Assembly (NCBI GenBank): GCA_964016885.1
Contig: OZ024743.1
Span: 173,104,001 to 173,168,000, forward strand
Length of the DNA: 64,000 bases
Direction of reading: 5' to 3'
DNA from: Eledone cirrhosa
Taxonomy: Eukaryota
In this document: positions 1-40,155 of the stretch, in pieces
Layout of the letters: each line of letters opens with the position of its first letter
Position numbering within the stretch: the first letter of the stretch is position 1
Notes under the pieces: generated by a model
Databases searched by the model: none
Told to the model about the DNA's origin: nothing
What the model saw: the letters and a program-made list of their open reading frames with translations, nothing else
Position numbers and translations under genes: made by a program

Positions 1-158
1 TCTTTCGCTGAAACAATGAACAAAAAACAAGATTTTATAAATCTTGACATCTCCAATGCAAGAGATATGTTCTAGCAAGGGAGAAAATTTGTAACTTTCG
101 AAGTGGGTTTAGAATTAACTCACCCCTCGAAATAAAAGAAGACGCAGTTCGAAGGACA

Positions 159-1555
159 GTGACCTTTAGGACTGTATCCAATACCACGAGAAAGCCGATA
201 TTTGTTAGTCAAGGAGATATAGAAGATAAATTGAAAGAAATTCTAGCAAATATCGACTTTCTCCAACGAGTAAAACAGTACGGGAGTGTTTCCGTACTGT
301 TTAAAAGCGAGGCACTCGCCCAAAAACATTCTGTGACACCAATGGTGTCAAAATCATTCACCTTTTTCCCTACATACATGGGAAAAAGGACACAAAAAAT
401 AAAAATAAAAAATATACCACCAAACATTAACATCTGGTGGATCTTGGCTGGCTTCGTAGAGCCAGAAACTGATATGATTCTTTCGATACGAAAGTCTATT
501 CGACAAAGGTGGGCGGGTACTGATTTGAAGATTCTGTTGCAAATGAGGCCGGAGAGAATCTCCAAAATACCCGAAAAAGTCGTCATCGACGACAACAACA
601 AAATAAACATTTCGGTAGAAGGACGAAAATTTCATTGCTTTCGCTGTGGTAGCACAGCACACCTAAAAGCCTCCAGTCCTTCACAAACACACCACAACAA
701 CATCATTAAAAAAACACTATTACCAACACCAACACCAAAACAACCACCACCACCACAAGTACAACAGACGAAACGAGCAACCACACCAAAACAAACAGCC
801 ACTCAACCAACAACAACAGAAAAAACACGGACAGCTCCCCTGAAGAACACAGTCCCACCCCATCCCACTCCATCCAACACTTCCACAAACACACACACAA
901 AAACACCATCACCACACAACATACCCCTATCGCACACGCCTGATGACGATTATTCATCAACAGACGAAGCTACTTCTCCATCCCCAAGCGAGGATGAAAG
1001 AGAGCCGCGGAAAAAAAAGAAAGAAACACGTAAAGCCACAAAAACACCAATCACCGACACAAACAACAACACAAACAACACCACAATCAAACCTCCCCCT
1101 ACCAGCAAAACAAACACCAACACCACCCCAAACACAAACACCCACCATAAAAAGAAAACTCCCGGACGAACAACAAACTAAAACAACACAACGAAAACAC
1201 AAACAACAATACGCATACATCAACACAAACAACAAGAGTTTGATGGAGGTCATCTCCCAAAACCCCAAGGTGGAGACGGAGGGGCAAAACTTTCGTCAAG
1301 GCAGAATCGTCTCCACACCTTAAACTTATAAGGGTTTCTATGGAAACCTATCATGACCTGAAAAATAAATTTTCACAGGAGGTGGGCAACCCCTGCCAGA
1401 AACCCATCAACCGCGTCCTGTTAAAATGTTTCCCAACCACACCCAACACCCCATCCAGCACCAAATGGAGATTGAACAACCCGATCTCCAGGAAACGAAA
1501 AGGTAAGTACACCGTTCGTCCTTTTTCTCCAACACTTCTACACCAACATGGCTAG
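159..1555 (+). pseudogene. Tx1 ORF1 (RNA-binding protein with degenerate CCHC knuckle and Thr/Pro-rich linker), disrupted
   Basis: HCFRCGSTAHLKASS resembles CX2CX4HX4C; continues through stops/frameshifts in ORFs 943..1323 and 1340..1555; the stop overlaps the ORF2 ATG at 1548. Confidence 0.8.
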
Positions 1556-4500
1556 TTTACGAGTTGGGAGCGTAAATGTACGTGGACTAGGGATGCCCTG
1601 GAAACAGGGCCAATTTTTAAACGACCTTAGGTCACACGGTATGGATGTGATAGCCATCACCGAGTCCAGGATCCACAACAGTCAGCAACTAACCCCCATC
1701 TTCGACGACTTTGAGATCTACGCATCTCTCTGTCAGCCAGGAGGTGGAGGGGGAGTGGCTGTCATGTTTCGGAAGAACCTGGACGTCGAAGTACAGCAAG
1801 TACACTTGGACCCGGGCGGTAGACTGGTAGTCCTAGACGTGAACAGTATTGGAGGAGGAGCCTTCAGACTGGTGGTCGTTTATGCCCCGACCGGGCAATC
1901 GCAATCACGGCCAGACTTTTTTAAGATTCTAGAGTCTTTTCTGGGAACGTCTCGCTCCTTACTTTTAGTGGGGGACTGGAATAGTATCATAGATGTACGA
2001 TGGGACTATGTGGGAGCATGTCCCAGTAGAGGGGGGTGCAACAGCCTCAAACTTTAATCGGCCAATTCCAACTAGGTATCGACTGGATTTACCGACTGCA
2101 CCACAGTGGACGTGGGCAAAATGCAGCGGGACATCTAGATCGTATTTAGATAGGTTCTTCATTAGAGAAAGGGACAAGGAGATGTTAAGCTGTCCACGAA
2201 TGCACATGGTTGCCTATTCAGATCACAAATTAGTCGTCTACTTAGTCAACCATGATAGAACACATAGGCAAGGACCCGGATATTGGAAGCTGAACGTGTC
2301 GTTGCCGGCACGTAAAGCTTACAGTGAACGGATAAGTAGACTAGTCAAGCAACAGTTAACGGGAGCCATCGTCAACAATAAATTGTGGTACTCTCTCAAG
2401 AAAGCAATTAGAATAGAATCGATAGGGTTTAGCAGAGAGTTACCCTTAGAGAAAAACAAAATAGAAAGAGAACTAGTAGCCAAGGTAGAGGAAGCACTTA
2501 GAAGTGGCTAGAGTGTTAGCGCCGAGAACGGCTCTGGACCAGTTCTTCGATGCGAAACACGAAGGCTGTGTGGTCAGAAACAAAACACGTTCTCTAGGAA
2601 ACGAAGGAGCGAAATCAGTCAGCTGGGCCGGAGTGGCGGAGGCGAAAAGTGGCAACAAGTCCACGATTCGGTCTTTGAAAGACCAAAACGGACGCGTGCT
2701 ACTTGACCCCAAGCAAATGTGCGAGGCCTTTCAGCAGCACTTTGCGTGACTGTTTGAGCAGAACGACGGTGAGCCGAACGGGGCAATGGACTTTAGTTCA
2801 TAACTCGACGGCCTGCCGCGTCTCTCGAACACGGACGCCGAGTTCTGCGAAATACCGATCACGGACACTGAGATACGGGACGCTCTGGGCCGCTGCGGGA
2901 AACGCAAGTCACCCTGTCTAGATAGTCTACCCTATGAGTTTTACATAGGCATGCCAGACTTGTTCTCTGGCGTCCTCGAAGCCGTCTACTGCAATTGGTA
3001 GCAGAATGGGAGAATTCCCAGTTCTGCAGGCAAGGGCGTAGTAACGCTGATCAGGAAAGACGAGAACAAGGGGGACGAAATTAACAACTTCAGGCCCATA
3101 ACTCTGCTCAACACAGAGTTAAAGATTTTGGCCAAGGTGCTAGCGACAAGGTTGGCGCTTGTCGTCGAGAACCTGGTAAGGAAAGCGCAAACGTGTGCAA
3201 TCCCGACCATGTCCCTACGCGACAACCTCCACCTCATGCGATACATCATAGAGAGGGTGGGTAGTAAACCCGGCTTTGGTGGGGCTCCGATCCATTTGGA
3301 TCAGTCTAAGGCATTCGGTAGGCTTGACCATCGATACTTGGAAGCGGTTCTCAAGGCGGCCGGTTTCGGTCCCGTTTTCAGACGCTGGATCGAGGCGATG
3401 CACACCAGCATATGCTCGAGGGTCAAGGTGAACGGCTACCTATCGGAGCCGTTCGCAATCACGCGTTCCATTCGACAGGGGTGCCCTCTTTCCTCCATTC
3501 TGTATGTATTGACTCTAGAGCCACTACTGCGGAAATTGGCGCTGTTGCAGGGCATCCCTCTAGAACCGGGACTGCGCAACGCGGCGTCGGCTTATGCCGA
3601 CGACGTGACGGTAATGGTGTCGAGCACCTCGAAAATCGGGGTGATTGGAAACTTACTGAAAGAATACGAAACACTGACGGGAGCAAAACTAAACCCGGAC
3701 AAGTCTGTCGGTTTTCAACTCGGTACGTGGAGAGGCAAACCGATGACGTCTGACAGCGTCGTTGGACGCTGGACGGACGGACCGGTGAAATTGCTGGGGG
3801 TCTGGTTCGGTCCAGACCTCCAGGTGGAGAAAAACTGGAACGAGTCACGGTCAAGGTGTTTGCGCTCACCCAGAAGTGGGCAGAGTGCAAACTGCCCTTG
3901 AAAGGTCGAGCGGAGGTGGCGAACACTTTCATAGCGTCCGTCATCTACTACCGCTTGACTGTCGTGCCCAAGATGGAACGCATGCTCTTCCAGTTTCTGT
4001 GGAAGAAGCAGGCTCCACTGGTGAGGATATCCGTCTGCTGTCAGCACCCTTCCAACGGAGGGCTGGGAATGCCATGGCTGATGATGCGCAAACATGCGCT
4101 GAGGCTGCGGCATCTCCAGGTATTCCTCACCGACCCCCAACCGGTGTGGGCACCGTTTGTGAGACAGGCTTTCCCATAGCTCGTCTCGCTGACGGAGCTG
4201 CAGTCCTGGGTCAAGAAAAGACCGAAAACGATGGGCGCCTGGCACATTGAATGCGCTCAGGTGCCTACTGTCCTCTGGAAACCGGGAGCAGCAATCAATG
4301 GAGACTCCACTTCGACATTCTATAGAGGGATTGTACGTTACAAGGGCGACGACGTGCTCGGAGAGACTCTGGGCGTCGAAGACGATGAACTCACCAGTCT
4401 GTTTGGTAGGACTTCTTGATGCGCGCAGGACATTGAAACAGTCCTGCACGCAATTGAACACTACCCAGGCGTAACCGACCTGTGGAACTATGCAGAACAA

Positions 4501-4815
4501 CTGCTGCCGCGTATGGGACAAATCCAATTGACTGCCGAGTCCATAATAAGGATCAAACCGCCAGCCTCTTTCAAAAACGAAAGAGAGGCGGTTTTCCTCT
4601 GTACGGTGGCTATGGTGAAAGAAGTTATATGATGGACTAGGTTGAGAGGACTGAGGACAGATGCCTTTCTCTCCGGACAACAATTGATTCCCTTCTTTAA
4701 GTATCACTTTAGAAGGAGAATCAGGGTGGAGAGAGAGGCACTACACCCCAGTAAATTTACTGAAAGGTGGGTGAATGAAGCGAAAATGACCCGAGTGATT
4801 GGGCCTCCTCTGTAG
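1548..4815 (+). pseudogene. Tx1 ORF2 (APE endonuclease + reverse transcriptase), frameshifted
   Basis: SVNVRG, AITES, VYAP, GDWN, YLDRFF, SDHK, GPGYWKLN, LDQSKAF, IRQGCPLS, YADD, GGLGMP motifs across ORFs 1548, 1993, 2504, 3128, 3856. Confidence 0.92.
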
Positions 4816-6177
4816 GTTAAAGAAGAGAGCAAAAGAAGAGAGCAAAAGGAAGAAAGGAGCACTTGCAAAACACGCTCCTGGAGTTGAGGGTTGTTCTATC
4901 GATTGGGTATTAAACAACCCATTTGTGCCCCCCCCCCCCCCTATTGGGGATTTCGATTGTTGTAATTGTTTGTTTTTATATTTTTTACACTTTTACACGA
5001 CTGTATGTAAAATCCCCGGCATGTCTTTGTATTGTCCCCTTTTCTTGTGCGCCCTTGTGGCTAATAAAGAAATATATCTATCTATCTATCTATCTATCTC
5101 AGATAGTCTGGACGTGTACTACTTTGCTGGTAAGTTTTTTGTTAATTTTGCATGCAAAAAACAGAAACTTTTTGTTAAAAAATACATTGTTTCGTAGATT
5201 AACCCTGAGGCTGAATTGTCAGCTGGGCGGTAAGCTCACTTTTCGCCCAACGAGGGCGGAAATTTTATTTGAAAACATTTTGAAAAGCTAAAATATAGAC
5301 GTCACTATGATGACAAGTAGTGAAAATAAAGATCTGTTTCGCAATAAAAGCGAAAAATGCAACTCACAAGTTGGACCACACAGCTCACAACAGACATAAA
5401 AAACCATAGAAAATGAAACAATTTACACAACTACAAACGAAAAAAGTGACAACCGCAACAACAACACCAAAAAACATAACATTTGCACAAACAGTCATAA
5501 ACAAACAAGACTTCAAGGATCTCGATATCTCCAATGCGAGACAGATGCTTTCTGAAGCAAAGGAATTTATTATTTTCGGAGAAAACGGTGGGTTTAAGCT
5601 AAACTCACCCCCAGAAATTCGTCTTGAAACACTTCGAACACTTCAGAACTGTTTCAAATGAAACAAGAAAGCCGGCATTCCTCAGTCAAGGGGAAATAGA
5701 AACAACCTTGAAGGAGGTTTTGCTGGATATAGACTTTATGCAGAGGGCCAGACAGTATGCTCCTCAAAAGCAAGGCCATCGCACAGAAATATTCAGTGGT
5801 ACCAATATTTTCGAAGAAATACACCTTTTTCCCTACTTACCTGGGAAAAAGGAGCCAAAAAACAAAATTTCCAACTTACCACCAAATATTAATATTTGGT
5901 GGATATTGGCAGGATTTTTAGAGGAGGAACAGAACACCATCCTCTCCATCAAGAAATCAACCAAACACACGTGCTCTTGTACAAATTTGGAGATTCTGGT
6001 TCAAATGAGGCCGGAGAGAATCTCCAAAATACCTGAAAAAGTGCTGGTGGACAACAACAGCCACATAAACATTTCAGTTGAAGGAGTGAGACCACACTGC
6101 TTTCGATGTAACAGTACATCGCATCTAAAGGCCTCCTTCACTTTACAGACACACTTTAAAAAAACAATCCAATTAAA

Positions 6178-6347
6178 ATAATTGTTTATACTTTTGGCAC
6201 AAGGCCAGCAATTATCCCAGTACATTACTGGTACTTAATTTTATCGACCCCGTAAGGATGAAAGGCAAAGTTAACCTCGGCGGAATTTGAACTCAGATCG
6301 TAAAGGGACGTAACTATGCTGGAAAGCATGTCCGACCCTCTACTGCT
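6178..6347 (-). mobile_element. tRNA-derived SINE (Meta-domain-like core), head partly deleted
   Basis: Same family as 27665-27845; B box GAGTTCAAATTC and core GCCTTTCATCCTTACGGGGTCGATAAAA on the minus strand. Confidence 0.85.
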
Positions 6348-6350
6348 AAA

Positions 6351-6539
6351 AATAATTGTTTCTACTTTAGGCACAAGGCCAGCAATTACCCAGTGCATTA
6401 CTGGTACTTTATTTTATCGACCCCGTAAGGATGAAAGGCAAAGTCAACCTCGGCGGGATTTGAACTCAGATCGTAAAGGGACGTAACTATGCTGGAAAGC
6501 ATGGCGTCCGACCCTCTACCGATACTGCCAATCCACCCT
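6351..6539 (-). mobile_element. tRNA-derived SINE, full length, subfamily A
   Basis: A box TGGCAGTATCGG, B box GAGTTCAAATCC, core domain, tail GGCCTTGTGCCTAAAGTAGAAACAATT. Confidence 0.9.
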
Positions 6540-8455
6540 CTACTGCTAAAAATAATGTTACCAACACCAACACCAGAACCACCACCACCACAACAACAAG
6601 AGCACCACACAAAACAAGCAAACACACCAAAACAAACAGCCACTCAACCAACAACAACAGAAAAAAAACGGACAGCTCCCCTGAAGAACACAGTCCCACC
6701 CCATCCCACTCCATCCAACACTTCCACAAACACACACACAAAAACACCATCACCACACAACATACCCCTATCGCACACGCCTGATGACGATTATTCATCA
6801 ACAGACGAAGCTACTTCTCCATCCCCAAGCGAGGATGAAAGAGAGCCGCGGAAAAAAAAAGAAACACGTAAAGCCACAAAAACACCAATCACCGACACAA
6901 ACAACAACACAAACAACACCACAATCAACCCCCCCCCCCTACCAGCAAAACAAACACCAACACCACCCTAAACACAAACACCCACCATAAAAAGAAAACT
7001 CCCAGATGAACAACAAACAAAAACAACACAACAAAAACACAAACCATAGTACGCATACATCAACACCACCAACAAAAACCTGATGGAGACCGAGGGGAAC
7101 ACTTTCGTGAAATCAGGATCAGCACCACACCTGAAATTGATAAGAGTTCCTATGGAAACTTATAACAACCTGAAATATGAATTTTCACAGGACGTCGGAA
7201 ACCCCTGCCAAAAACCCATAAACCGCGTCCTATTAAAATGTTCCCCACCCCACCCAACACCCCCACCAGCACCCAAATGGAGATTGAAAAACCCGATCTC
7301 CAGGAATCGAAAAAGTAAGTGCATCTTTTCGTCCTTTTTCGCCCTGGAAACAGGGCCAACTTTTAAACGACATTAGGTCACACGGTATGGATGTGATAGC
7401 CATCACCGAGTGCAGGATCCACAACAGGCAGCAACTAACCCCCATCTTCAATGACTTTGAGATCTACGCATCTCTCTGTCAGCCGGGGTGGAGGGGGAGT
7501 GACTGTCATGTACAGCAAGTACACTTGGACCCGGAGGGTAGACTGGTAGTCCTAGACGTGAACAGTGTTGGAGGTGGAGCCTTCAGACTGGTGGCCGTTT
7601 ATGCCCCGACTGGGAAATCACAGCCAGACTTCTTTAAGCGTCTAGAGTCTTTTCTGGGAACGTCTCGCTCCTTGCTTTTAGTGGGGGACTGGAATGGTAC
7701 CCTAGACGCACGATGGGACTATGTAGGAGCATGTCCCAGTAGAGGGGGGTGCAACAGCCTCAAACATTTAATCGGTCAATTCCAACTGGCCGATAGGTAT
7801 CGACTAGATTTACCGACTGCACCACAGTGGCCATGGACAAACCGCAGCGGGACATCTAGATGGTATTTAGAGATGTTCTTTATGAGAGAGAGAGACAAGA
7901 TGTTAAGCTGTCCAGAAATGTACAAAGTTGCCTATTCAGACCACAAACTAGTCATCTGCATAGTCAATCATGATAGAATATATAGACAAGGATCCGGATA
8001 CTGGAAGCTGAACATGTCGTTACCGACACGTAAAGCCTACAGTGAATGGATAAGTAGATTAGTTAAGCAACAGTTGACGTGAGCCATCGTCAACAATAGA
8101 TGGTGGTACTCTTTCAAGAGAACAATTAGAGTAAAATCGATAGAGTCGATAGCTTTTAGTAGAGAACTAGCCTCGAAGTAAATCACGTGCTCTAGGAAAC
8201 GAAGGAGCAAAAGCTGTTAGCTGGGCCCGAGTGGCAGAGGCGAAAAGTAGCAACAAGTCCATGATTCGGTCTTTGAAAGAGCAAAACGGATGCGTGCTAC
8301 TTGACTCCAAGCGGATGTGCGCGGCCTTTCAGCAGCACTTTGCGCAACTGCTCGAGCAGAGCGGCGGTGCGCTGAACGGGACAATGGACTTCGGTTCATA
8401 CCTCGAGAGCCTGCTGCGTCTCTCGAGCATGGACGCCGAGTTCTGCGAAAATACA

Positions 8456-8640: not shown

Positions 8641-9563
8641 TGTAGTTAACTATTTGTCTAGTCAATTTCTACGCGCTAAAAGAAATAATTAGATAAATTT
8701 AATATGACTGTATATCACAGAAGATAATCTGTATCAATTGTCTATTATTTCTCCATAGTTACATTTTAAACTTATAGCCTCGTTTAAATGATTTTTTATG
8801 TGGTAGATTTATACTGATTAGGAGAGGAAATACTGTATATATTTTATCTAATAGTTCTTCAGACTTACAATTTTACTGATTAATGATTATTTGCTTAATT
8901 AATTCTTCATTGAGCCACACAGTGAAAGGTTGCCAAACTCATATATGTATTTGTGACTATGTATTTGTGACTATATATACCCCTTTGAATTTAATATATA
9001 CTCCCGTAAGGTTGAGTAAAACTTTAGGCAGTATTTGGCTGCGTTTTCTAGCAACCAGCCTACTCGCCAACAAGTACCAATCACAAATTTTCTGCCTTGA
9101 CCGCAGGCCACGTGAGAGTTCTTAGCCATTTTGAATTCATTTCTGGCGGGGATCATGGTAGAAAAAACTTAGTCCAGTCTGAGGTATCTCCTGGGGAGTT
9201 CCAGGCCTCGTGGATATATCCAAGATCGGGTATATTCAAAAAGTGGAACGAAAGCACCGGTGGTCGAGACTAGAGGAATTTTGGTAAACTTTATGTGCAT
9301 TTTTTCTTCAAACTTCTATTTTGTACCTAACTCCGTGTAGTTAACTATTTTTCTAGTCAATTTCTACGCGCTAAAAGAAATAATTAGATAAATTTCATAT
9401 GACTGTACATCACGGAAGATAATCTGTATCATTTGTCTATTATTTCTTTATAATTACATTTTAAACTTATAGCCTCGTTTAAATGATTTTTTATGTGGTT
9501 GATTTATACTGATTAGGAAAGGAAATACTGTATATATTTTATCTAATAGTTCGTCAGACTTTC

Positions 9564-9570
<7 letters not shown>
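8641..9570 (+). mobile_element. Non-coding element with ~235-bp direct terminal repeats (695-bp period) and a hammerhead-like motif
   Basis: 8641-8875 is repeated at 9336-9570 with scattered substitutions; flanked by TA-rich microsatellites. Confidence 0.7.
9187..9269 (+). ncRNA. Degenerate type I hammerhead ribozyme-like motif
   Basis: TCTC-CTGGGGA-GTTCCA...TGGAAC-GAAA-G-CACCGGTG-G-TC-GAGA: stems I and II pair, stem III is palindromic, GUC site; two deviations from consensus. Confidence 0.6.
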
Positions 9571-9642
<72 letters not shown>

Positions 9643-10424: not shown

Positions 10425-10550
10425 AGTCCCTTTACGGTCTGAGTTCAAATCCCGCCGAGGTTAACTTTGCCTTTCATCCTTACGGGGTTGATAAAATAAA
10501 GTACCAGTAATGTACTGTGTAATTGATGGCCTTGTGCCAAAAGTAGAAAG
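10425..10550 (+). mobile_element. 5'-truncated SINE
   Basis: B box, core and tail; flanked on both sides by AATATTATTATTATTA. Confidence 0.85.
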
Positions 10551-11316: not shown

Positions 11317-11360
<44 letters not shown>

Positions 11361-11486
11361 GAAGGTGAGTAATATTGTAGAACAATAAAACTATGCATAT
11401 ATCAGAAAAGTTGCACTCAACAGTTTGTAGAACTGGAGTATATATAATAAAGAAGAAATTGAAAGATGGTTAAAAGAGTTCCATAT

Positions 11487-11554
11487 ATTTTATTATACGC
11501 ATTTCGAATACAAAATCATCCTGGGACAAAAATTGTGATCTCATCAGATAAAAC
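11487..11554 (-). ncRNA. Type I hammerhead ribozyme in the 3' pLTR
   Basis: GTTTTAT-CTGATGA-GATCACAA...TTGTATTC-GAAA-TGCGTA-TA-ATAAAAT; intact core, stem I 7 bp. Confidence 0.8.
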
Positions 11555-11747
11555 AAGGTAACATGATACGAGGCATAATAGCACTTGTTTACAGGAAAGT
11601 GACAAGTCAACATATGACAGAAATATAAGTGTTAAAACTATAGTAAAAAATAGATAGGAAAATAGAAGAAAGAAAAGAAGAGGAGAAAAAGGAAAAAGAA
11701 AGAGGAGAAAAGAAAGGGAAAAAAGAAGAAAAGGAAGAGAGAGAGAG

Positions 11748-11808
<61 letters not shown>

Positions 11809-12352
11809 CCTCTGATCAGGAACGCTGTCAAAATGAAAACAGCTGTAAATAACGGTTAAAAAATAAATATGTGCGAATATTATAGACGGTATTCAAATGT
11901 TAGAGGCCTAAATCTAGAAACTGGGTATATTATTTTATATTGGGTTTAAATACTGAAAATTGGATTAAGAAGTGTAAAAATGTATTAATAAAATAAAATA
12001 AAATAAAATAAATATTAAAAAAAGGATTTTTATAAAATAAAATAAAAATAAAAATAGATATGTCAAAATTAATAATTTCTAGTAAAAATCTATATATGTG
12101 GGGTATACTATTTAATTTTTATTTTATATCAACAAGTAAATAAAGGAAATTGCTAGAAAGATTTATAAATGTAGAAAAACATATGACGTCATAATTTGTT
12201 TACAAAATCTACGAAGGTTTGAGCGAAAATCTAAGGCTTAAGAAATAAGTATCAAAGGTTTAAATATGATGAGAAAACCAAATTAATACATTGTAGAATA
12301 TAATGAAAGATGCGTAAAGATGACCGTGACTCATGGAATATGTTATAGGACA

Positions 12353-14727
12353 TCAGCTATATACTTTGTGAAAGGTCTTGTGGGATTTATGATTACAAAG
12401 TCCAAATAAATCAGTTCTTCGATTTATTATTGTGTTGAAATTCGAGATAATGGTAAATTTTTCAACTAGACATAAATTACAAACACTAGATATGGAAGCA
12501 TTGGAGTATGGAGATGCGTTGTAGATTTTACGCCAAGAAATTTTGTAATTTATGTTTTTGTCTTTTAAGGACCAAATAAGTTCTGAGAGTGCGGTGCTGG
12601 TCCTTTTAAGTGGAGATTTAAATGTAGAAGAATGATTATAGAATCTTGCTTTAAAGGAGGTAGAAGTAGAGCCAATGTAGGTATAGGTGTTGGTACTAGT
12701 TACCACTTTACATTCGTATACTAGGTTTTTATCGAGACAGAAATTACCAAGAGGACAATTAGGGTAGTTGCATTTACGATTAAGATTATTTACAGAGTTA
12801 TTTGCAAGTGGCCCAGAATTAATTATATTAGGAACTGGAGTGGTGGAATTAACTAAAGGAGGTGCTAAAGTTTCCAGATTTACATTACTATTTGATGCAT
12901 TCCTCAAAGTTACGTTTGACGTCGTATTTATACTTGTGTTATTTTGCCTAGAGTTTACATTGACGTCGGGTCGTATAGTGTTATTATTATGACTCTCATG
13001 GTTGGATGCATATGAGTAATTATTTAATATTTTAGAATTATGTCTTGAGATAATTTTAGAAATGTTGGAAGTAGTAGAATACGAGAATTTAATAGTATGC
13101 CTATTGAAAATCTTGCTATATATATGTGAAGGAGGGAAGCTGTTATGTAATGCGCTAAAAAATAATTTAGGGATATTATTAATAACGGAAAGATCGAAGG
13201 GAGCGTTGTACCAAAGGATATTTTTATATCTAGATCTCCTCCTTTTGTTAGCAGTATGATTATATTACTAGCATTCCTAGAGTTATTATAAGCACTGCCA
13301 AGGTTAAGATCTTTAGTATACCTAATTTTGTCTAGATGTCCAGCCCTAGATAGGGCATTATTATAATAGTTGGCATTAGCTTCGAAGATATCTTTATTAG
13401 AGGATAAATTAGAAATTTTTTTTCTACACTTTTGACTATAGCAGTTTTAACATTATTAGGGTGATTAGTTTTAAAGTTAACGTAATTTAAGTTCTCCTTA
13501 TCCTTATGATATGGGTAATATAGGCCGGTATCTAGATTAAGGGATTTATCAAGGAAATTTGCTAGTTTAACATTATTCGAATTCAATTTTTAAGTTAAGA
13601 TGCTTAAATAGATCAAGTATATTTTTCTTAATTATATTAGAGTTTACATTGTTACAATTACAGACAGTAAAAAGAGCATCATCACGATAAATCCCACCGC
13701 GAAGCTGGGGAATTTTCCGGTTTAAAGAATTCAAGATGAAAATTCCAACTAAGTCGGTCAGTTGAGCTGAATCCGACGAACCCATGGTGATGTCGAAATT
13801 GTTGGAAGTATCCACTCTTGCCCAGTATTCATTGTTAAATTCCAAGATGGTTTTCCTAGCGGTGAGAATGATGTTTATTTCTTCACTAGTGATGTCCGTA
13901 TATTTTAACGCATATGAGAGAGACTTATTTAGGAGTGAAGGAGAAATAGAAGAGTAATAGCTAGCGATGTCTAACTGAATAAATTTCAGTTTGTTTTTAA
14001 TTTTTAGGTCGTTGAACCCAGTCTGTTACTTCAGATGAACCCAACCATAAATTTAGTTGAGATTCATACCTAACCTGTGGGATAATTCTATCCAAGATGG
14101 ATTTACTAATCACCCCTAGGTCAGATTTAGAAGGGGCAATTAGTCTTACAGGCAAGTCCCTTCGAAAATTTCTTTTATGATCCTTCAGACTAATCCTCGG
14201 AGTTCTTGGGAAGAACGGTTCTGTTTTTTTTCTCAATTCCGAGGTTGGTTACTATCTTAAATGATAGAATCCAGATTATCGTGCGTAGTTTTACGATAAT
14301 TTTTTAATTCTTTAAGGATAAGGATAGGTTATTATATTTATCCTTACTTATGCCGTATAAATTAGTAGTTTTGTCAGTATGAACTAAAACGTTTTTAGAA
14401 GAATTAAGGTCATTAATTTTATTCTTATGGTTGATAAGGTGTCCCTGGCCTCGATAAGGGTTTCTTTTGAATTTAAGTCCTCGTATAATTTTAGTTAATT
14501 CGTTTTCAAAATGTGCTAAGTTTTTATGAAAGGGAGGGTTTCTTCTGGAGTTAAATAATGAATCGAGGTTATTAGGTTCCTTTCCATAAAAATGTCCTTT
14601 TAAGCGCTGGTCATGGAAATGAACGATCCATCTGAGCCTCCGCACGAAAGAGTCCGTTTTTTCTATCAAAGGTTTTTCCCGGTATAGGTATGTCCTTAAG
14701 TGAAGTTGTGATGCTGTAGTAATCCAT
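12353..14727 (-). pseudogene. Penelope RT + C-terminal GIY-YIG endonuclease ORF, frameshifted
   Basis: SLKDIPIP, LIEKTDSFVRRLRW, DKTTNLY, LKDHK, FDITMGS, IYRDD, ILWYNAP, IFNRHTIKFSYS, CPLGNFCL..NLVY...YIG, CNLCLVEK, matching Naiad-type signatures as I recall them. Confidence 0.9.
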
Positions 14728-14929
14728 GTTTTAATAGAAGTAGAGACCATCAATAGTATCCGATATAAGAGTTAGCGCTCAAACAATCAAGGAGAAAGTT
14801 AATGTAGGTGAGTAATATTGTAGAACAATAAAACTATGGATAAAATAGATAAGTAGCACTCAACAGTTGGTAGAACTGGACTATATATAATAAAGAAGAA
14901 ATCAAAAGATGGTTAAAAGAGTCCCATAT

Positions 14930-14997
14930 ATTTGATTATGCGCATTCCGAATACAAAATCATCCTGGGATAAAAATTGTGTTCTCATCAGATAAAAC
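14930..14997 (-). ncRNA. Type I hammerhead ribozyme in the 5' pLTR (GAAA mutated to GGAA)
   Basis: GTTTTAT-CTGATGA-GAACACAA...TTGTATTC-GGAA-TGCGCA-TA-ATCAAAT. Confidence 0.75.
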
Positions 14998-16196
14998 AAG
15001 GTAACAGGATACGAGGCATAATAACACTTGTTTACAGGAAAGTGCCAAGTCTACATATGACAGAAATATAAGTGGTAAAACTATAGTAAGAAATAGATAG
15101 GAAAATAGAAGAAAGGAAAGAAGAGGAGAAAGAGGAAAAAGAAAGAGAAAAAAAGAAAGGAAAAAAAGAAGAAAAAAGGAAGAGAGAGATAGAGAGAGAC
15201 CTCTGACGAGGAACGCTGTCCAAAGGAAAACAGCTGTAAATAACGATTAAAAAGTAAATATGTGCGAATATTATAGACGGTATTCAAATGTTAGAGGCCT
15301 AAATATAGAAGCTGGGTATATTATTTTATACTGAAAAATGTAAAAATGTATTAATAAAATAAAATAAATTAAAAAAAAAGGATTTTTATAAAATAAAATA
15401 GAAATAAAATAGTCTATCTATGTCAAAATTTATAATTTCTAGTAAAAATCTATATATGTGGGGTATACTATTTAATTTTTATTTTATATCAACAAGTAAA
15501 TAAAGGAAATTGCTAGAAAGATTTATAAACGTAGAAAAACATATGACGCATAATTTGTTTACAAAATCTACGAAGGTTTGAGCGAAAATCTAAGGCTATA
15601 GAAAAAAAGATCAAAGGCTTAAATATGATGAGAAAACCAAATTAATACATTGTAGAATATAATGAAAGATGTGTAAAGATGACCGTGACTCATGGAATAT
15701 GTTATACGACATCAGCTATATACTTTGTGAAAGGTCTTGTAGGATTTATGATTACAAAGTCCAAATACATCAGTTTTTATTGTTGTGTTGAAATTCCCTT
15801 TTCTCCTCTTCTTTCCTTCTATTTTCCTATCTATTTCTTACTTTTAACACTTATATTTCTGTCATATGTGGACTTGGCACTTTCCTGTAAACAAGTGCTA
15901 TTATGCGTCGTATCCTGTTACATTGTTTTATCAGAATTTTTGTCCCAGGATGATTTTGTATTCGAAATGCGCATAATAAAATATATGGAACTCTTTTAAC
16001 CATCTTTTAATTTCTTTATTATATATACTCCAGTTCTACCAACTGTTGAGTGCTACTTATCTGGTATATGCATGTAAGGATAAATATAATAACCTTATCT
16101 TTAAAGAATTAAGAAAAAATTATCGTATAACTACGCACGATAATCTGGATTCGATCAATAGGGAAGCATTTGAGATAGTAACCAACCTCGGAGATA

Positions 16197-24735: not shown

Positions 24736-24736
24736 A

Positions 24737-26333
24737 TGAGAGTCCCCCGTTCCATTATCTGGTGGGCCCTTAGAAAACTAGGTGTCGACGAATGGCTTGT
24801 GAGAGCTATACAAGCCATGTATAAAGAAACAGTCAGCAAGGTTAGAATTAACAACGAATATAGTGAAGAGTTTAGCGTAAAAGCTGGCGTCCATCAGGGC
24901 TCTGTTCTCAGCCCCCTACTATTTATTATTGCCCTTCAGGCTATAACAGAGGAGTTCAAGACCGGCTGCCCATGGGAACTCCTATACGCAGACGACCTAA
25001 CACTCATAGCTGAATCAATGGCCGAGCTAGAGAAGAAATTCCAAACATGGAAGCACGGCCTAGAATCAAAAGGCCTTAAAATTAACCTGGCTAAGACTAA
25101 AGTTCTAGTTTGTAGGAAAGAAAATAAGGCGGCAGTCCCTTCCGGGAAATGGCCATACTCAGTGTGTAGGAAAGGCGTAGGTAGAAACTCCATTTTATGT
25201 CCCAAATGCAAAGTATGGGTGCATAAAAGATGTAGTGGGATCACAGGTAAGCTAACTAAGAACATAGATTTTACATGTGGCCGGTGCTCTGGTGCAATAA
25301 GTAGCAGCAAGTGCCCACAAAATACTAGCTCTTACAACTGCGCAGAGGGCTCTATAGAAATAGTGGACAGCTTCTGTTACCTGGGTGACAAAATCAGCAG
25401 TGGGGGAGGGTGCTCTGAAAGTACAGTAGCTAGAGTCAGAACTGGATGGAAAAAGTTCAGAGAGCTTATACCACTATTAGCCGCTAATGGGTTCTCCCTA
25501 AAAATGAAAGGCAGGTTGTATGATGCCTGCATACGAACAGCAATGTTGCATGGCAGTGAGACCTGGGCATTGTGTGCAGAGGATATACGCAGACTAGAGA
25601 GGAACGAAGCTTGCATGCTCCGTTGGATGTGTAATAGTAATATACGTGAACGGCAAAGCATAAACGAACTAAGGAAAAAATTAGAAATAAGAGGGATCAG
25701 ATGTTGTTTACTCGAGAGAAGGCTACGTTGGTATGGACACGTGATGCACATGAAAGTCGATAGCTGTATAACAAAGTGCAGGGCAATAAAGATAGACGGT
25801 AGCCACGGAATAGGCAGACCTAGAAAAACCTGGGACGAGCTGATAAACTCCGACCTCACACACTTACACCTCTCCAAGACAATGTCACTGGACCGAGACC
25901 TTTGGTGGTACTCAGTAATAGAGAAGACCCGCCTTACCTAAATACATAGTAAAACATACTACAGTCAGTAGGCATCTCTAACAAAATACACCCCCGTCCC
26001 ACCACCCCCACCCCATCCACACCACCCCCTTCTATGTAAAGTTATGTTGGTGCCACACCATCCAGGCCGAAACAAATGAGATTGTGTAGGTGTCACGACA
26101 AAAAAACACACAGTCCATGCTGTAATGTGGCCGTGTAGGCAACACGGTAAAAACCTCCCAGACCCACACTGTAAATGTGGTTGGTGTTAGGAAGGGCATC
26201 CAGCTGTAGAAAACCTGCCAGACAGTCCTATGCGAGCAAGACAATCACTCTTGCCTCAAGTGGGAAAACCCCCGTCCAAACCCATGCAAGCGTGGAACAC
26301 GGACGTTAAACGTTGATGATGATGATGATGATG
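24737..26333 (+). mobile_element. 5'-truncated RTE LINE, young (uninterrupted 401-codon RT C-terminal frame), 3' UTR and (GAT)n tail
   Basis: ORF 24736..25941: GVHQGSVLSP, LYADD, PHD-like finger, FCYLG, LHGSETW, RLRWYGHV, GRPRKTW. Confidence 0.92.
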
Positions 26334-28049: not shown

Positions 28050-31000
28050 GTGAACATGGGACGCAGAAAACATTTCTCATCTAAATCTCAACGCATGGCA
28101 GCAGACGCACAACGACAAAGAGAGACAAGGGCAATTCAATCAAACAATAATCGCACAACAAATTTCTACAAATGTAGTTCAGTTAACACACCAACAACGA
28201 CTTGCAACAAATACACCAAATGTTCAGAGAGGAAGGAACAGGTCAATTGAAGGTCTGGCAAAGAATCCTACAGATGAACCTTTCCAGAAGCAAAATGTTC
28301 TTTCCATAATGCCACAACATAATGCAGGGAGTCTCTTTGCCTCTGTTTGTCTGCACTGCAAAGCTTATTGCTGGCCACATGAACCCAAATCTCTGTGCTG
28401 CTTCCAAGGAAAAGTGAAATTTTAAACCAAATATACTGAAATATTTCAATATCACTCAAGCAGGAAATTCTTTTCTCCATAAGATACGTGCATATAACAA
28501 TGTGCTTGCCTTAGCTGCAATTGGTCGCAAAGAGATTAGAGACCCAGGATTTAGTCCCCTATTTAAGATCCAAGGTAAGGTTTATCATATTATTGGATCA
28601 CTACTTCCAAGTGATGCTTCACCCAAGTTTACGCAGCTTTACTTCTATGATACAGATCATGAGCTTCAGAATCGCTTGCATCATGCTAATTTAGATGCTG
28701 CTGTCCTGCAGGATCTACAAGAAGACTTGCACTACTGCAACACCTCTATAAGAAGCTTCAAGGCAGTCATTGAAATGCCAGTCTCTGAAAATGTGAATAT
28801 TGTCCTACATGCTGACAAAGTAAACCCCACTGATTTTCATTGTCGCACATATAATCTTCCCATGGCATCTGAGATTGCTGTTATTCAACCTGATACAGCA
28901 TTAGGTCTCTTGGATGTCATCATTCATAAAAGAGATGGTCGGCTACTGTTTCCTTGGGGGAATGATGGGTTTCAGGTTGGTTTGAAAAGGATTGACAACA
29001 ACCACACACTCAGACCCACTGATTTCTACTGTTATCGGTTTCAGGTTAGGCAAGGTGGCTGTAACATTATCATGAAGAGCAGGCGGCTGATGCAGCAATA
29101 TGCTGTAGTTGCCCAGGCAAAAATAGAACATTGTCGCCTCAAATGGGCCCACAACAATCAAACCATGATACAAGCTGAAAAGTATGAGGGTTTGTATGAT
29201 GCTGTGGCTGAAGGAGATTCAGTAAATGCAGGCCGGAGAATGGTTCTTCTTCCTTTAATCTATGGTTCCCCTCGCTTCTACAGTGAGTGTTTCCAGAATT
29301 CGATGACTGTGGTTCGACACATAGGAAAGCCACCTTATTTCATCACAGTAACACCTAACCCTAACTGGATGAAATAAGAAACAGTCGGCACCCTGATGAA
29401 GAACCTAGGGACATTCCCAATATTTGTGCAAGAATTTTCAAGATTAAGTATGACAGCCTCATGGATGACATACTGAAAAAAAATGTCTGAGGAAAAGTTG
29501 TGGCTCATTCTGCTACAATAGAGTGGCAGAAACGAGGCCTTACTCATGCTCATATTCAGCTGAAAATGGCAGAAGATAACAAGCCCAAAACTGCAGATTC
29601 CATTGATCAGGTAGTGTACTGTGAAATTCCTGATAAAGAGACCAATCCAGTTCTGCATAAGATCATCACATCCTACAACATTTAATTTATGACCCATGTG
29701 GACAAGCTAATATGATGTGCTCATGTATGGAAGGGCTAGGACAACAACACCATTGCTCAAAAAGTTATCCCAAGGCATTCAGACAAACCACATTTGTTGC
29801 CAAAAATTCCTTTCCAGAGTATAGAAGAAGAGATAGACAGCATGGTGGTCACACCCATACAATCCAACTTAGAGGTCAAGAATTTACTGTTGATAACTGT
29901 TGGATTGTTCCATACAACCATTTCCTCTCATTGAGATCTCAGCGCCACATCAATTGTGAGGTTGTACACAGTGTCAAGGCTGTTAAGTATTTATATAAGT
30001 ACATTACAAAAGGATCAGACAAGATCACTTTCACTATTAAGGATGATCAAGGAAATTGTGTCCATGCCCAAAATGCGATTGAGACCTATATCAATGCACG
30101 GTACATATCAGCCGGTGAAGCATTCTGTAGAATCTATAAATTTCCGTTACATCATCGGAAACCGCCAGTTGAAAAGTTGCCTTGCCATTTACCTGGGGAA
30201 CAAATGGTCGTGTATGAGCGAGGGCAGGAACAAAGTGTTGTTTCAAGGGGACAGCCAATGACTAACTTGATAGAATATTTTCAACTGAATATTAGAGACC
30301 CACTGGCATAAAACATATTGTATATTGATATTCCTAAATATTTCACTTGGACAAACAAAAAGTGGCAAAGAAGAAAAAAGGTACATCTGGATTGTGATCA
30401 ACAATTTATGAGTGAATCTCTTGGACGCATTCCAACAGTATTTCTCAGTAGACATCAATCAGGATAATCCTACATCACAAGGCTGGGTCAACTTCATACA
30501 AAGATTTGAGGACAATTGAAGAAATTGAATTTCCAACATTCCAAGAAGCATGCAGGAAACTTGGTCTGTTAGATGAAGATGGAGAGAAAGAAAGACAAAG
30601 CTATGGAAGAGGCCTCATCCATTGCGCTTGGTCCTCAGCTACGAGAGATCTTCTGCACCATTTTATTGTACTGCATGCCAAATGACCCTCTGCAGTTCTG
30701 GGAGAAATGGAAGAATTGTCTTGCAGAGGATATCAAGCATGAACGTCATGAGCAAGTCATGTCCAAGCAAACTGTGCAGATTGTTCTACAGAAGATCCAA
30801 CAAAGACTTTAGCATGATGGCTTGGACATTCATGTCAACTATGGACTTCCTCGGCCAGACCCAACTATTGTTGCCATACCAGAAATCAATAGGGTTCTTA
30901 TGGCAGAAGCTGATTTCAATACCTGCCTAGTGCAAGCAAACATAAATGAACTTCTGCCAACATTGAATCCTGAGCAACTGGTTATATTTCACAAAGTAAT

Positions 31001-32280
31001 CACCTCTGTAAATGAAAATGAAGGTAGAACTTTCAGCTTGAATGCAAGTACAGGCACAGGAAAGACCTATGTCATAAACATCCTATTAGATTACCTCCAA
31101 TCTAAAAAAGAAAAATTGCACTTGCCACTGCCATATCTGGAATAGCAGCCACTTTACAATGGTAGAACTCTTCATTCCAAGTGGAAGATTCCTCTCAATG
31201 TGACTGCTGAATCAACTTGCTTCTTCACAAAGAGGGATGCCACAGGTAAACTTATGCAGCAAGATGACCTGCTAATCATTGATGAGATAGGTATGGGACA
31301 TAAGCATATCTTTGAATGCCTTGACAGGAGCTTCAAAGATGTTCGAGACTGCAAAAAGCCATTTGGTAATCTAACAGTACTACTATCTGGTGACTGGAAG
31401 CAAATTCTTCCAGTTGTACATCATGGTGCTAGACCACAAATAGTTGAGGCAACCATCAAGAGATCTTATCTCTGGGTATGTGGAAACCATGGAGATGACA
31501 ACCAATCAACGGTTACTTAATGCAGAGGATTCTGATGAAAGACAGTTTGCAAACTACCTTCTTGATGTGGGAAATGGTAACATTCCAACTGTACTGACTT
31601 TAGGTGCATTCACAATTCCTCTGCCAAATGAACTTTGTCTGGAATATGGTAATGTGTCTGGACTGTGTGATTTTGTGTATACAAATCTTCCAGGAAATTA
31701 CACAAACCCACTATGGCTTGTAAATAGAGCCATTATCATTCCAACAAATGATGCAGCAAGATTGGTGAAGTTCCCTGGTCATGAAATAATCTACAGAAGC
31801 TCCAACGGCAATATTCAATTGAGTTCTTCAACAAACTTACCCCACAGGATTCCCAACACACATACTTAAACTGAAGAAAGGCTGTTGCATCATGCTTCTG
31901 AAAAATCTGGATCCTCTAAATGGGCATTGCAATGGTGCATGCTACATCATTACCAGTTTACATAATCATGTAATTGAAGGTGAAGTGGCATTGGGTCCCA
32001 ATGCTGGAACCAGGTTGCTAATCCCAAGGATACCTCATGTATCTCGAGCTTGAGTTCACTTTCACCTTTACTCGCAAGCAATTTCCTGTCAATCCAGCCT
32101 TTGCCCTTACATGCAACAAGGCACAAGGGCAGGCATTTGAAAAGATAGAATTCTTCTCACATGGTCAGATGTATGTTGCATTATCAAGAGTTACAAACAA
32201 AGAAAATATTAAAATATTAAATGAAAGGGTCTGTTTGCTGACAACTGTGTCTACAAAGGAATTCTACAGTGATATGAAAC
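28050..32280 (+). pseudogene. Helitron Rep (HUH-Y2) / PIF1 helicase
   Basis: [74 protein letters not shown]; many stops and frameshifts. Confidence 0.92.
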
Positions 32281-33539: not shown

Positions 33540-36500
33540 AGAAACAAATAGAGAGGAACAACAAAAATGAAGACGTCGCATCTCAAAGGTGCAACACTTA
33601 ATGTTGGCACTCTCAGAGGTAGATCTGCTGAAATAGCGGAGATGCTGGAGAGAAGGCATGTGGATGTGTGCTGTGTGCAAGAGGTGAGATGGAGAGGTGC
33701 CTCTGCGAGACTAGTCACAGGCAAACATCTTAGCTATAAGCTTTTCTGGGTAGGTAAGGATGATGGGTTAGGGGGGAGTAGGCATTTTCCTGGCTGAGAG
33801 ATGGATCAATAAGACAATAGAGGTAGTTCGAGTTAGTAATTGAATAATTAAACTTAGATTAGTTGTAGGCAGGAGACTACTGACAATCATCTCTGCCTAT
33901 GCTCCCCAAGAAGGCCTAGGCAAAGAAGAGAAAGACTGCTTTTACGAGCAACTTTTACAAACAACCGCAATGACAGAGAACGGAGACATCGTTATGCTAG
34001 CAGGGGACTTCAATGGTCATGTTGGACAGCTCCAGGACGGTTACACTGGGGTACATGGTGGGCATGGTTACGGCTCAAGAAATGAAGAAGGAGTGAGACT
34101 TCTTGTATTTTGTGATGCAAGTACACTGACTATTTGCAGCACTAACTTCCAGAAACCTGCCAACCACCTAATAACCTACAAATCAGGTGAGCACATAAGC
34201 CAGATTGACTTCTTACTAGTTAGGCAGCAGGACAGGCAGATGGTGTCAAATACCAAGGCATACCCTGGGGAAGAATGTACCCCACAGCATAGGTTAGTCG
34301 TTAGTGATATCTCAGTAAGCAAGAGATGGAATGAGACATACAGGAAGGTGTGGAGAAGAAAGGTCTGGAAGCTAAAAGACCTTTCACTAAAATACAAATT
34401 TAGGAAAGCCCTTCAAGATGTGTATGACGAAAAAAGAAGACGATTTAGAGACGTATGACATAGATAATAACTGGAATTTCTTACGTGACAACTTACTGCA
34501 GGCTACTGATGAAACTTGTGGTTGGAGCAGAGCTCCAACCAGACAGAGAGTGACCTGGTGGTGGAACAGCACAGTAGATAAGGCTATTAGAGACAAAAGA
34601 TTAGCATGCAAGGCTTGGAAAAAGGGTGGGAGTAGAGTAGGATATACAGCCGCTAAGAGAGAAGCTAGATGTCAGGTGTACTTAGCACACAGGGAGGCTG
34701 AGAGTAGGAGGTTTGCCAATGTTCTGCGACGGGAAGATCAGAGGTGTGCGGTGTTCCACATTGCAAGGCAGTGTGTCAATGCAGATCAGGATGTTGTTGG
34801 AGATAAATGTGTCCGGAATGATGCCGGTGTACTTAGTGTCACGAATGATCAGAAAAAGGAGGCCTGAAAATGTCATTATGAGAGACTGATGAATTTGGAG
34901 AACGAATGGGAGAGAGAGAAATTACCCTCAGTAGATTGGGACCGGCTATTGAGATTGATGAATATAGGGTCCAAGAGGCGATTAAGGAAATGAAAAATGG
35001 CTGCTGGACCATTGGGGATAGTTGCTGAGATGCTGAAAGCATCAGGGGACGTAGTCACTAAACTGGTTGCACGCATCATCAATCAATATGGTGGTGTCAT
35101 ACCCAAAGACTGGTGCAGCAGTATTCTCATTAATTGCTACAAAGATAAAGGGGATGCTCTGGAGAAGAGCAATTATAGGGGTATAAAACTGATGGATCAG
35201 GTTATGAAAGTGGGAGAAAGGATATTAGCACAACTAATTAGAGAAAGGGTCAAACTAGATGAGAATCAGTTTGGTTTTGTGCCTGGGAAAGGTACAACAG
35301 ATGCCCACTTCTTGGTGAGACAGTTACAAGAGAGGTTCTTAGAGAAGAATAAGCCACTATACTTAGCCTTTATTGACCTAGAGAAGGCCTTTGATAGGGT
35401 ACCCCGATCTGTCATCTGGTGGTCCCTAAGGAAACTAGGTGTTGAGGAATGGCTCGTGAGGACAGTGCAACCTTTGTACAGAGGTACTGTCAGTAAAGTC
35501 AGGGTAGGAATGGAGTTTAGTGAGGAATTCCAGTACATCAAGGTTTGGTCCTCAGCCTGCTCTTGTTCATTATAGTCCTCCAAGCCATAACAGAGGAGTT
35601 TAAGACTGGCTGCCCATGGGAACTTCTCTATGCTGACGATCTGGTTCTTATAGCAGAATCAGTAGAGGAGCTAGAGAATAAATTCTGGCTATGGAAACAG
35701 CAGTTGGAAGCAAGAGGACTGAGAGTGAACCTAGCTAAGACAAAAGTGTTGGTGAGTAGAAAAGAGGACAAAACTCTGATTCCGTCAGGGAAATGGTCAT
35801 GTTCGGTATGCAGAAAAGGAACTGGCATAAATTCTATAAAATGCACACAATGCAGATCCTGGGTACACAAGAGATATAATGGGATAGCAGGCAAACTAAC
35901 AGGTAGGGAGAAATACGTATGCAGTAGATGTACAGGGAAATTAGACAGTAGAAGTCGCATTGATAGACACATTTTTCAAATGCAGGCGGGTGCTATAGAA
36001 GTGGTGGATAGCTTCCGGTACCTAGGAGATCAGATTAGCATGGGAGGGGGGGGGGGTTTCCGAGGCCATAGTATCTAGAATAAGGATGGGTTGGAAGAAG
36101 TTTAGGGAGCTGCTTCCTCTGCTGACGAAGAAGGGTTTCTCCCTGCGTACAAAAGGCCGGTTATATGATGCCTGTGTGAGGAGCACGATGCTGCATGGTA
36201 GTGAGACATGGGCAGCAACTGCAGAGGATATGCGACGGCTGGAGAGAAATGAGGTAAGCATGCTCCGTTGGATGTGCAGTGTCAATGTGCGTGAACGACC
36301 CAGCATGAATGTGTTGAGAGAGAAACTGTGTCTGAGAGGGATAGAATGTAATGTGCGAGAGAGGAGACTGAGGTGGTATGGACATGTGATGCGCATGGAT
36401 GATGACCGATGGGTCATGACCAAGTGCCAGGAAATGCCAGTTGAAGGAAGACGTGGTAGAGGTAGACCACGAAAAACATGGGCAGAGTTGATGAGAACAG

Positions 36501-39532: not shown

Positions 39533-40155
39533 CAAAGGTTCTCAACGGGGAGGGGGGGCATATGCCCCCAGGGTGGGGGCTGGGGCGTTTTTGAGCAAGG
39601 GGGAGTTAGGGTGGGCGTTTGAAGCTGGGGGGGGGGCTAAGGGGGCACCGGAAGGCTATTTACGTAGGTAAGTTTTATAAGCCATATTTGTACGTCTCTG
39701 AGACAGCCAGTGTGAATGCATTTGAATGAAGAAAACAAAGAAAATAAATAAAAGAAGCTTGTCAACGAATTCCCTAGGGCGATAAAAGAAAAACAAAAGA
39801 AATCAAAGAAAATGAAAATAAGGAAAACATCAACTATGACAATAGTTACAAGAACAACAGAAACGACAAGAAAAAGAAGCAATCATACACACACATGCAT
39901 ACGTACATACATACATACCTATATATATACACACACAGGCTGGCGTTGGTGTTTGATGAGGTTGAGAATCTGGTCAGCTTTTAGCCAGAGTTGTGGTATT
40001 TACTCTCCCTGGGTAATAAAATCTGGACTCAAAATTCTCGCCTTACCAAAAAACATCACTTATGTCAACATCCTTACACACTTAAATATAAATGCATGTG
40101 TATATACAAATGTATAAATGCATAGCTACATACATAGGTAAATGTATGTATGTAG

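Follow-up and report, generated by a model that had tools for sequence, protein, structure and literature searches.

The window analysed here is a 64,000-nucleotide stretch of the Eledone cirrhosa genome (GenBank assembly GCA_964016885.1, contig OZ024743.1, positions 173,104,001 to 173,168,000, forward strand). It carries at 8641-9570 an insertion made of 1.34 units of a 695-bp non-coding repeat, which we number from q1 = window position 8641. A sequence-only reading of this DNA had described about 1.3 copies of a 695-bp unit lying between microsatellites and devoid of a credible open reading frame (ORF), and both statements were confirmed. The direct repeat 8641-8875 / 9336-9570 is identical at 223 of 235 bases with a period of 695, TA and CA microsatellites flank the insertion, and the longest stop-free stretch of this copy in six frames is 81 codons. 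The parts of the insertion, and a separate Penelope element nearby, are as follows.

8641..9570, plus strand: whole insertion, a 5'-truncated partial tandem of the 695-bp non-coding element (q1-q695, then q1-q235)
8641..8875, plus strand: upstream partial unit, 95% identical to 9336-9570, with 9 changes common to both relative to the subfamily majority
8876..8915, plus strand: start hairpin A (family form GCUC-stem-UU-GAGC), directly 3' of fixed end A
8876..9000, plus strand: 125-nt "tail" between fixed ends A and B
9000..9017, plus strand: start hairpin B (ACUC-CC-GUAA-GG-UU-GAGU), directly 3' of fixed end B
9025..9165, plus strand: conserved GC-richer block with two predicted hairpins (fold z -3.28)
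9187..9269, plus strand: type I hammerhead whose stem II is extended; cleavage is predicted between 9265 and 9266
9187-9190/9266-9269, plus strand: hammerhead stem I
9191-9197, plus strand: hammerhead core
9198-9203/9244-9249, plus strand: hammerhead stem II, with an inner hairpin at 9212-9237
9250-9253, plus strand: hammerhead GAAA
9253-9264, plus strand: hammerhead stem III
9265, plus strand: last base of the hammerhead GUC site
9318..9520, plus strand: long imperfect rod-like hairpin (fold z -3.31), with a sense-strand A>G excess
9560..9622, plus strand: fixed 3' end A joined to its (TA)n target
11357..15400, minus strand: Hy1, a separate Hydra-type Penelope element about 2 kb from the unit

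The boundaries of the 930-bp insertion correspond to a fixed 3' end and a chance 5' truncation, and thus the repeated 235 bp do not form a terminal repeat. Because the repeated portion differs between copies, it is not an LTR either. Target-site duplications of unit insertions are unreadable within (TA)n. The window copy diverges by 5.6% from the majority of its own subfamily, its two repeats are 5.1% apart as compared to a subfamily average of 9.5%, and a deletion of about 9 nt at 8875/8876 has removed the 5' arm of start hairpin A. Judged from its sequence, this copy is likely dead and, on its own, an ordinary fossil. The block at 9025-9165 contains what we take to be CCAAT-, E-box-, YY1- and GC-box-like motifs and is a possible internal promoter. 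The insertion sits in the microsatellite that terminates the second of two decayed LINE copies (5603-8450). The remaining elements of the window are the following.

48-4740 and 5603-8450: decayed AP-endonuclease/RT LINE in two neighbouring copies
6175-6519: dispersed short repeat in two tandem copies of 173 bp; another copy lies near 10430-10530
24736-25941 and 33844-36078: LINE reading frames, RT then PHD finger
28418-31869: Helitron pieces
38021-39594: hAT pieces
47144-48674: second hAT-like transposase, identified by eye
57899-58561: integrase-like frame, identified by eye

All parts of the hammerhead were found at the positions that the earlier reading had given. Its palindromic stem III is likewise present; in the family the palindrome measures 12 nt, as compared to the 8 nt of that reading. 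A scan of the window against Rfam returned no hammerhead family among 42 matches at E≤10, and the single-sequence fold of the window hammerhead was not significant (z -1.32). Thus, the window motif alone is statistically indistinct, and the reality of the hammerhead rests on the family. The earlier reading had also flagged two odd bases as probably inactivating. Among 29 other copies, position 9194 (core A6) was A in all 29, while 9254 (stem III 15.2) was C in 21, T in 6, A in 1, gapped in 1, and G in none. Both changes are therefore specific to this copy, and by the core consensus they probably inactivate its hammerhead. The adjacent position 9195 (T in 15, A in 12, G in 2) is free. Three contig sets of one sample, possibly the assembly's own and hence not independent, show the family letters at 9194, 9195, and 9254. 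The intact type I core that is absent from the window copy at 9194 and 9254 is held by the family, whose majority carries both this core and the C-G pair at the base of stem III, as the earlier reading had expected of a consensus. When 165 hammerhead regions were compared with a strict core pattern of two parts, 89 passed both, 63 passed one, and 13 passed none.

We then aligned the window hammerhead with 73 regions drawn from the 99 that satisfied a somewhat looser core pattern; because the rows were chosen by that pattern, core conservation in this alignment is due to selection of the rows. The named hammerhead structure paired in 86.3% of alignment cells. Its covariation score was 0.149 as compared to 0.114 ± 0.004 for shuffled alignments (0 of 500) and at most 0.059 when the structure was slid, while the number of covarying pairs was not above that of the shuffles (86 of 500). 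Clear pair swaps were G-C/A-U and C-G/U-A for stem I and, with preservation of the palindrome, C-G/U-A for stem III; stem II has a C-G/G-C swap whose alignment column is gapped and which is visible only in the subfamily rows. One pair of stem I was unpaired in 32 of the 74 aligned sequences. RNAalifold on the same alignment recovered stem III only and not the hammerhead. In energy terms, the hammerhead fold lay within 2 kcal/mol of the minimum in two of seven tested sequences and 4.9-10.8 kcal/mol above it in four, and one constraint failed. Since stem III has 4 bp and a tetraloop, dimerisation is perhaps not required. Three subfamilies have a U-U mismatch at the base of helix II. In the subfamily of L104, L122, and L259, U replaces C at core position 3 and G8 is kept. 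The conservation of a short reading frame through the hammerhead is explained by stem covariation. We also considered tRNA-type A and B boxes over the hammerhead and rejected them, as the look-alike letters vary in three subfamilies.

The family was surveyed in the assembly from which the window derives (3.0 Gb, 1796 contigs). A similarity search with the unit gave 2709 candidates, 40 of which were scored, with full-length matches at 89-94% identity. Exact patterns, whose counts are lower bounds on copy number, gave at least 958 matches genome-wide for a 25-mer upstream of the hammerhead and at least 265 for the site-B hairpin (reversed-pattern controls 0 for both), and at least 2716 for a motif common to the unit and its sister families (control 1). 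Seven subfamilies of 5-41 members took in 142 of the 152 segments of at least 400 nt; members lie about 5% from their own majority and 5-18% from other subfamilies, and compensatory stem changes occur between the seven. The sister families have units of about 650 nt with about 70% identity to the unit and keep its layout. At the sister loci L311/L312, L318/L319, and L071, hairpins A and B and the upstream block are common, and the stem II inserts differ. One of these, L312, retains the core, and its stems II and III differ yet pair. Seven copies of one two-armed insertion, spaced 130-280 kb apart at C3:89.3-90.3 Mb (L107, L112, L113, and L116-L119), mark a large tandem segmental duplication.

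To describe the ends of the insertions, we merged 164 unit loci, which came from similarity and pattern searches and not from a random draw, and removed 4 segmental duplicates, leaving 160 insertions with 242 arms. The 3' ends of the arms fell at q210-238 (end A) in 128 cases, at q335-375 (end B) in 44, and elsewhere in 70, whereas the 5' ends were scattered. A distance of 125 nt separates the two fixed ends. With wider end windows, (TA)4 followed 119 of 133 A ends as compared to 8 of 46 other ends, and (TA)n followed 45 of 63 B ends. End A precedes a GCUC-long stem-UU-GAGC hairpin, and end B precedes ACUC-CC-GUAA-GG-UU-GAGU. Both fixed ends lie inside an internal UAUAUA, and thus microhomology to the target may contribute. 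The 160 insertions contained 54 head-to-head junctions, 33 with both ends classed and 21 with an unclassed end. Among the classed junctions, 26 of 33 joined A to B as compared to 16.5 expected (p 6e-4), while 4 were B+B and 3 were A+A.

Most copies are dispersed, truncated, or two-armed insertions and not arrays. The tandem copies that the earlier reading had proposed looking for do occur: two to three hammerhead sites were present in 5 of the 242 arms (L042, L061, L100, L212, and L232). The window copy has a single hammerhead, and in L061 both cores read as intact. Within single insertions, the repeats differed from each other by less than the subfamily average in 54 of 66 comparisons of tandem repeats and in 64 of 84 comparisons of two arms, a likeness that fits one source per insertion and is compatible with both a circle and a multimer. 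A strong stop at the hammerhead cut site was rejected, because only 3 of 242 5' ends fell at q620-632 as compared to 4.5 expected and 129 arms crossed the site, in a sample that favoured long arms. Without a pile-up of 5' ends there, the template would be continuous across the site, as in an uncut multimer or a ligated circle. Together, unit copies show truncation at the 5' end and partly tandem repeats, may lie next to an inverted truncated copy or include a tail, and target microsatellites. The first four are Penelope traits according to PMC8557442, and the accessible text of that paper also reports that Hydra-clade Penelopes target (TA)n.

Substitutions among copies were compared for signs of an RNA stage. 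Sense-strand A>G changes amounted to 1.49% (348/23302) as compared to 0.91% for T>C (278/30571). The excess lies mainly in the long rod (singletons 0.80% versus 0.49%, p 0.016), with p>0.05 in four other regions. G>A likewise exceeds C>T, and the copies are not independent. The A>G excess is a weak hint of an RNA stage with A-to-I editing of the template, as selection on G-U pairs could equally produce it. No hyper-edited copy was found, the maximum being 7 A>G among the copies listed. Two regions of the unit outside the hammerhead fold with z -3.3. Compensation in the long rod was weak, with 1 double change, 4-11 one-sided changes, and 3-12 broken pairs per subfamily. The L061 monomer has a GC content of 32.6%, and its circular fold gave z -3.7, a value inflated by a TA tract.

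Two autonomous Penelope families show a comparable arrangement of ends. The window copy of Hy1, a near-complete element, has a broken ORF at 14771-12353 (minus strand) encoding RT plus GIY-YIG at the C terminus, with RW and DKT present and the CxCX5C linker altered. It has two pseudo-LTRs, hammerhead cores near 14990 and 11547, and a start hairpin at 11439. Pseudo-LTRs of Hy1 measure about 600-700 bp and present the hammerhead and then two start hairpins, in the same order as the unit. A search with the Hy1 endonuclease gave 60,306 first-look candidates, of which 150 were scored, at 78-100% identity. We found that 39 of 48 Hy1 ends fall at two sites about 80 nt apart, each followed by the hairpin motif, and that five loci have one end of each kind. 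Hy1 copies in (CA)n targets stop about 7 nt before the hairpin (L072 and L075). In Hy2, which targets (TA)n, 71 of 74 ends fall at two sites, the loci being partly redundant; a long GCUC...UC-GAGC and then a short GCUC-C...G-UU-GAGC hairpin follow, with the order and shape seen in the unit. Translations of L304, read by eye, contain RWK-type, DKT, CxCX5C linker, C-terminal GIY-YIG, CxxC, and CxH motifs, which, matched to the description in the accessible text of PMC8557442, suggest that Hy2 is a Hydra-clade Penelope. A hammerhead-like motif with the variant core CAGAAGA and a short stem II was seen by eye in Hy2 (L274 minus strand ~2812-2870; L304 2289-4426 minus strand), and the MFE fold did not give it. 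Both Hy1 and Hy2 begin their ORF about 30-40 nt downstream of the second hairpin.

Across the six fixed-end sites of the unit, Hy1, and Hy2, from which the hairpin motif was defined and on which it is also scored, RCUC...UU-GAGY follows five, and a UC variant follows Hy2 site 1. The window gives a motif background of 9 per 128 kb, including two real sites. Comparison by blastn of the unit with the Hy1 and Hy2 pseudo-LTRs revealed no similarity, the short hairpin motif being all that is common. Thus, the link between the unit and the Hydra families rests on this motif and on one clean chimera. In this chimera (L154/L039), an arm of the unit meets, seamlessly and head to head, a Hy2 endonuclease arm truncated at its 5' end, with a few bases in common and both outer ends in (TA)n, an arrangement most simply explained by one integration event. 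The chimera pairs end A with the first end of Hy2, not A with B. Another locus (L203) resembles it, but a TA tract separates the arms. Hy2 neighbours were found at 12 and Hy1 neighbours at 6 of 60 unit loci; proximity to Hydra elements is not evidence, because shared (TA)n targeting explains the neighbours. Hy2 is the leading candidate donor for the unit. The Penelope connection drawn in the sequence-only reading is strengthened by the end structure and by the hairpin common to the Hydra families.

The same reading had left it possible that the unit is a mere UTR fragment; among the copies read, none continued into an ORF or emerged from one. An explanation of this kind, in which the unit is the pseudo-LTR or UTR of a longer autonomous Penelope and its copies are 5'-truncated debris, draws on the layout and length of the Hy1 pseudo-LTRs and on the derivation of retrozymes from pLTRs in the accessible part of 10.64898/2026.07.22.740005. 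A further point in its favour is that the reading covered no more than 120 of the 265 exact matches to site B and, for the other patterns with 958 and 2716 matches, a few dozen. In those 120 contexts, however, 106 continue through the hammerhead, at a place where Hy1 and Hy2 would have begun their ORF, and the 14 that break off do so at a deletion, an interruption, or a microsatellite, none entering an ORF start. Hits of tblastn with six Penelope pieces lay at least 800 nt downstream, past the unit, and 60 further loci gave only adjacent or nested Penelope pieces and never an ORF continuous with the unit. The sequence upstream of end A is the preceding unit, in arms holding up to three hammerheads. 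We therefore regard an ORF-bearing parent as very unlikely. As individual candidates, the neighbouring Hy1 was rejected for want of sequence similarity, and the ORF pieces near L028, L173, L191, L235, and L347 were rejected as adjacent or nested insertions.

The unit could instead be non-autonomous and moved by the Neptune or Poseidon clade, with ends set only by microhomology between UAUAUA and the target. At L053 the unit 5' end abuts a Neptune-type end, at L028 its 3' end lies inside a Poseidon/Neptune-type EN gene, and both fixed ends are TA-rich. However, few ends fall in the longest internal TA tract (~q330-345), with 12 at q320-339 as compared to 35 in the bin of q360, A and B are paired non-randomly, and the hairpin occurs after Hydra ends; this explanation is unlikely. 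The L053/L302 locus (C14:12.17 Mb) is a two-armed insertion, whose clade we take to be Neptune, with a hammerhead-bearing end fused to the unit 5' end, by either a template switch or a nested insertion. Spread by DNA-level duplication of a satellite-like repeat derived from Penelope terminal sequence, with the hammerhead as a relic, would agree with the local-amplification scenario found in the accessible text of 10.64898/2026.07.22.740005, with the seven near-identical C3 copies that ride a segmental duplication, and with the L061 units, which are 1.3% apart. The end structure largely refutes it: the 3' ends are fixed and the 5' ends scatter, arms occur inverted, and the copies are spread among flanks unrelated to one another. 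The stems moreover covary, the core is kept across families about 30% diverged, and the A>G excess is strand-biased, which makes a satellite origin highly improbable.

We consider it probable that the insertion at this locus, itself likely dead, belongs to an animal non-LTR retrozyme, a mobile unit that has a hammerhead, encodes no protein, and is likely copied into (TA)n by the RT and endonuclease of a Hydra-clade Penelope. According to this model, rare multi-unit source loci would be transcribed from the block upstream of the hammerhead, and the RNA, either as an uncut multimer or as a hammerhead-cut and re-ligated circle, would be bound at hairpins A and B. The enzyme would cut (TA)n and start cDNA about 7 nt 5' of a hairpin, and both sides of the break could be primed, giving one arm from A and the other from B. 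The truncated arms would then be joined head to head, and copying that passes the hammerhead site without a stop would yield arms of 1.3 to 3 units. A broader proposal, to which we give slightly less than an even chance, is that the UU-bulged hairpin pair is a cis-signal for the start of Hydra-clade reverse transcription, with one hairpin per side of the (TA)n break. A clan of 650-700-nt ribozyme RNAs would have kept this signal and lost any other likeness to its donor, would be copied as a circle, and could share an integration event with the autonomous RNA.

Retrozymes and their proposed link to Penelope have been published (PMC7229834; 10.64898/2026.07.22.740005), as have palindromic stem III and dimeric cleavage of hammerheads (PMC4209133). 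As far as the accessible text of these sources goes, the proposals of a link rest on co-occurrence and pLTR phylogeny, and an RNA signal and an insertion footprint are not given there. Outside subscription journals and supplements, a literature search found no description of the two-hairpin signal or of the A+B rule. The unit has no coding capacity and a GC content below 45-50%. In its sequence the family fits the definition of a metazoan non-LTR retrozyme, and in its structure it bears the marks of a non-autonomous Penelope passenger. Like the metazoan non-LTR retrozymes described in the available parts of PMC7229834 and 10.64898/2026.07.22.740005, it is non-coding and low in GC, with one type I hammerhead per unit, a palindromic stem III, a highly self-paired predicted RNA, multi-unit copies, and co-occurrence with Penelope. 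The U-U mismatch of the three subfamilies parallels HHR_Amex2. Its length of 695 nt is above the 150-450 nt of PMC7229834 and inside the 51-972 bp of 10.64898/2026.07.22.740005. In contrast to these elements, stem II contains one more hairpin as well as an internal loop, and stem III is 4 bp long. Dispersed, truncated, or two-armed copies predominate, with only 5 of 242 arms holding at least two hammerheads, and no homology to the pLTRs of the autonomous Hy1 and Hy2 was found.

The unit resembles the Hydra-clade Penelopes of PMC8557442, as described in its accessible part, in truncation, tandems, inverted copy, tail, (TA)n, and hammerhead, and it shares the layout of two fixed ends plus hairpins with Hy1 and Hy2. 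It differs from them in having no ORF and in a tail of 125 nt instead of 30-40. The Chlamys MRC1-type elements in the same source are likewise ORF-less Penelope passengers with pLTRs and head-to-tail copies; in contrast to the unit, they match an autonomous partner at their 3' end and mostly have no hammerheads. For the Poseidon element PAc of Anolis, the accessible text of PMC11167929 explains the tail by two internal start sites and describes insertion without need of hammerhead cleavage. The unit is similar in that two internal start sites would define its tail and its target is AT-rich, and its absence of 5' ends at the cut site fits copying that is independent of cleavage. Initiation had previously been mapped for this one Poseidon element only, according to the same text; the unit family adds a naturally covarying candidate for the start signal, a clade as candidate donor, and a testable rule of one arm per hairpin.
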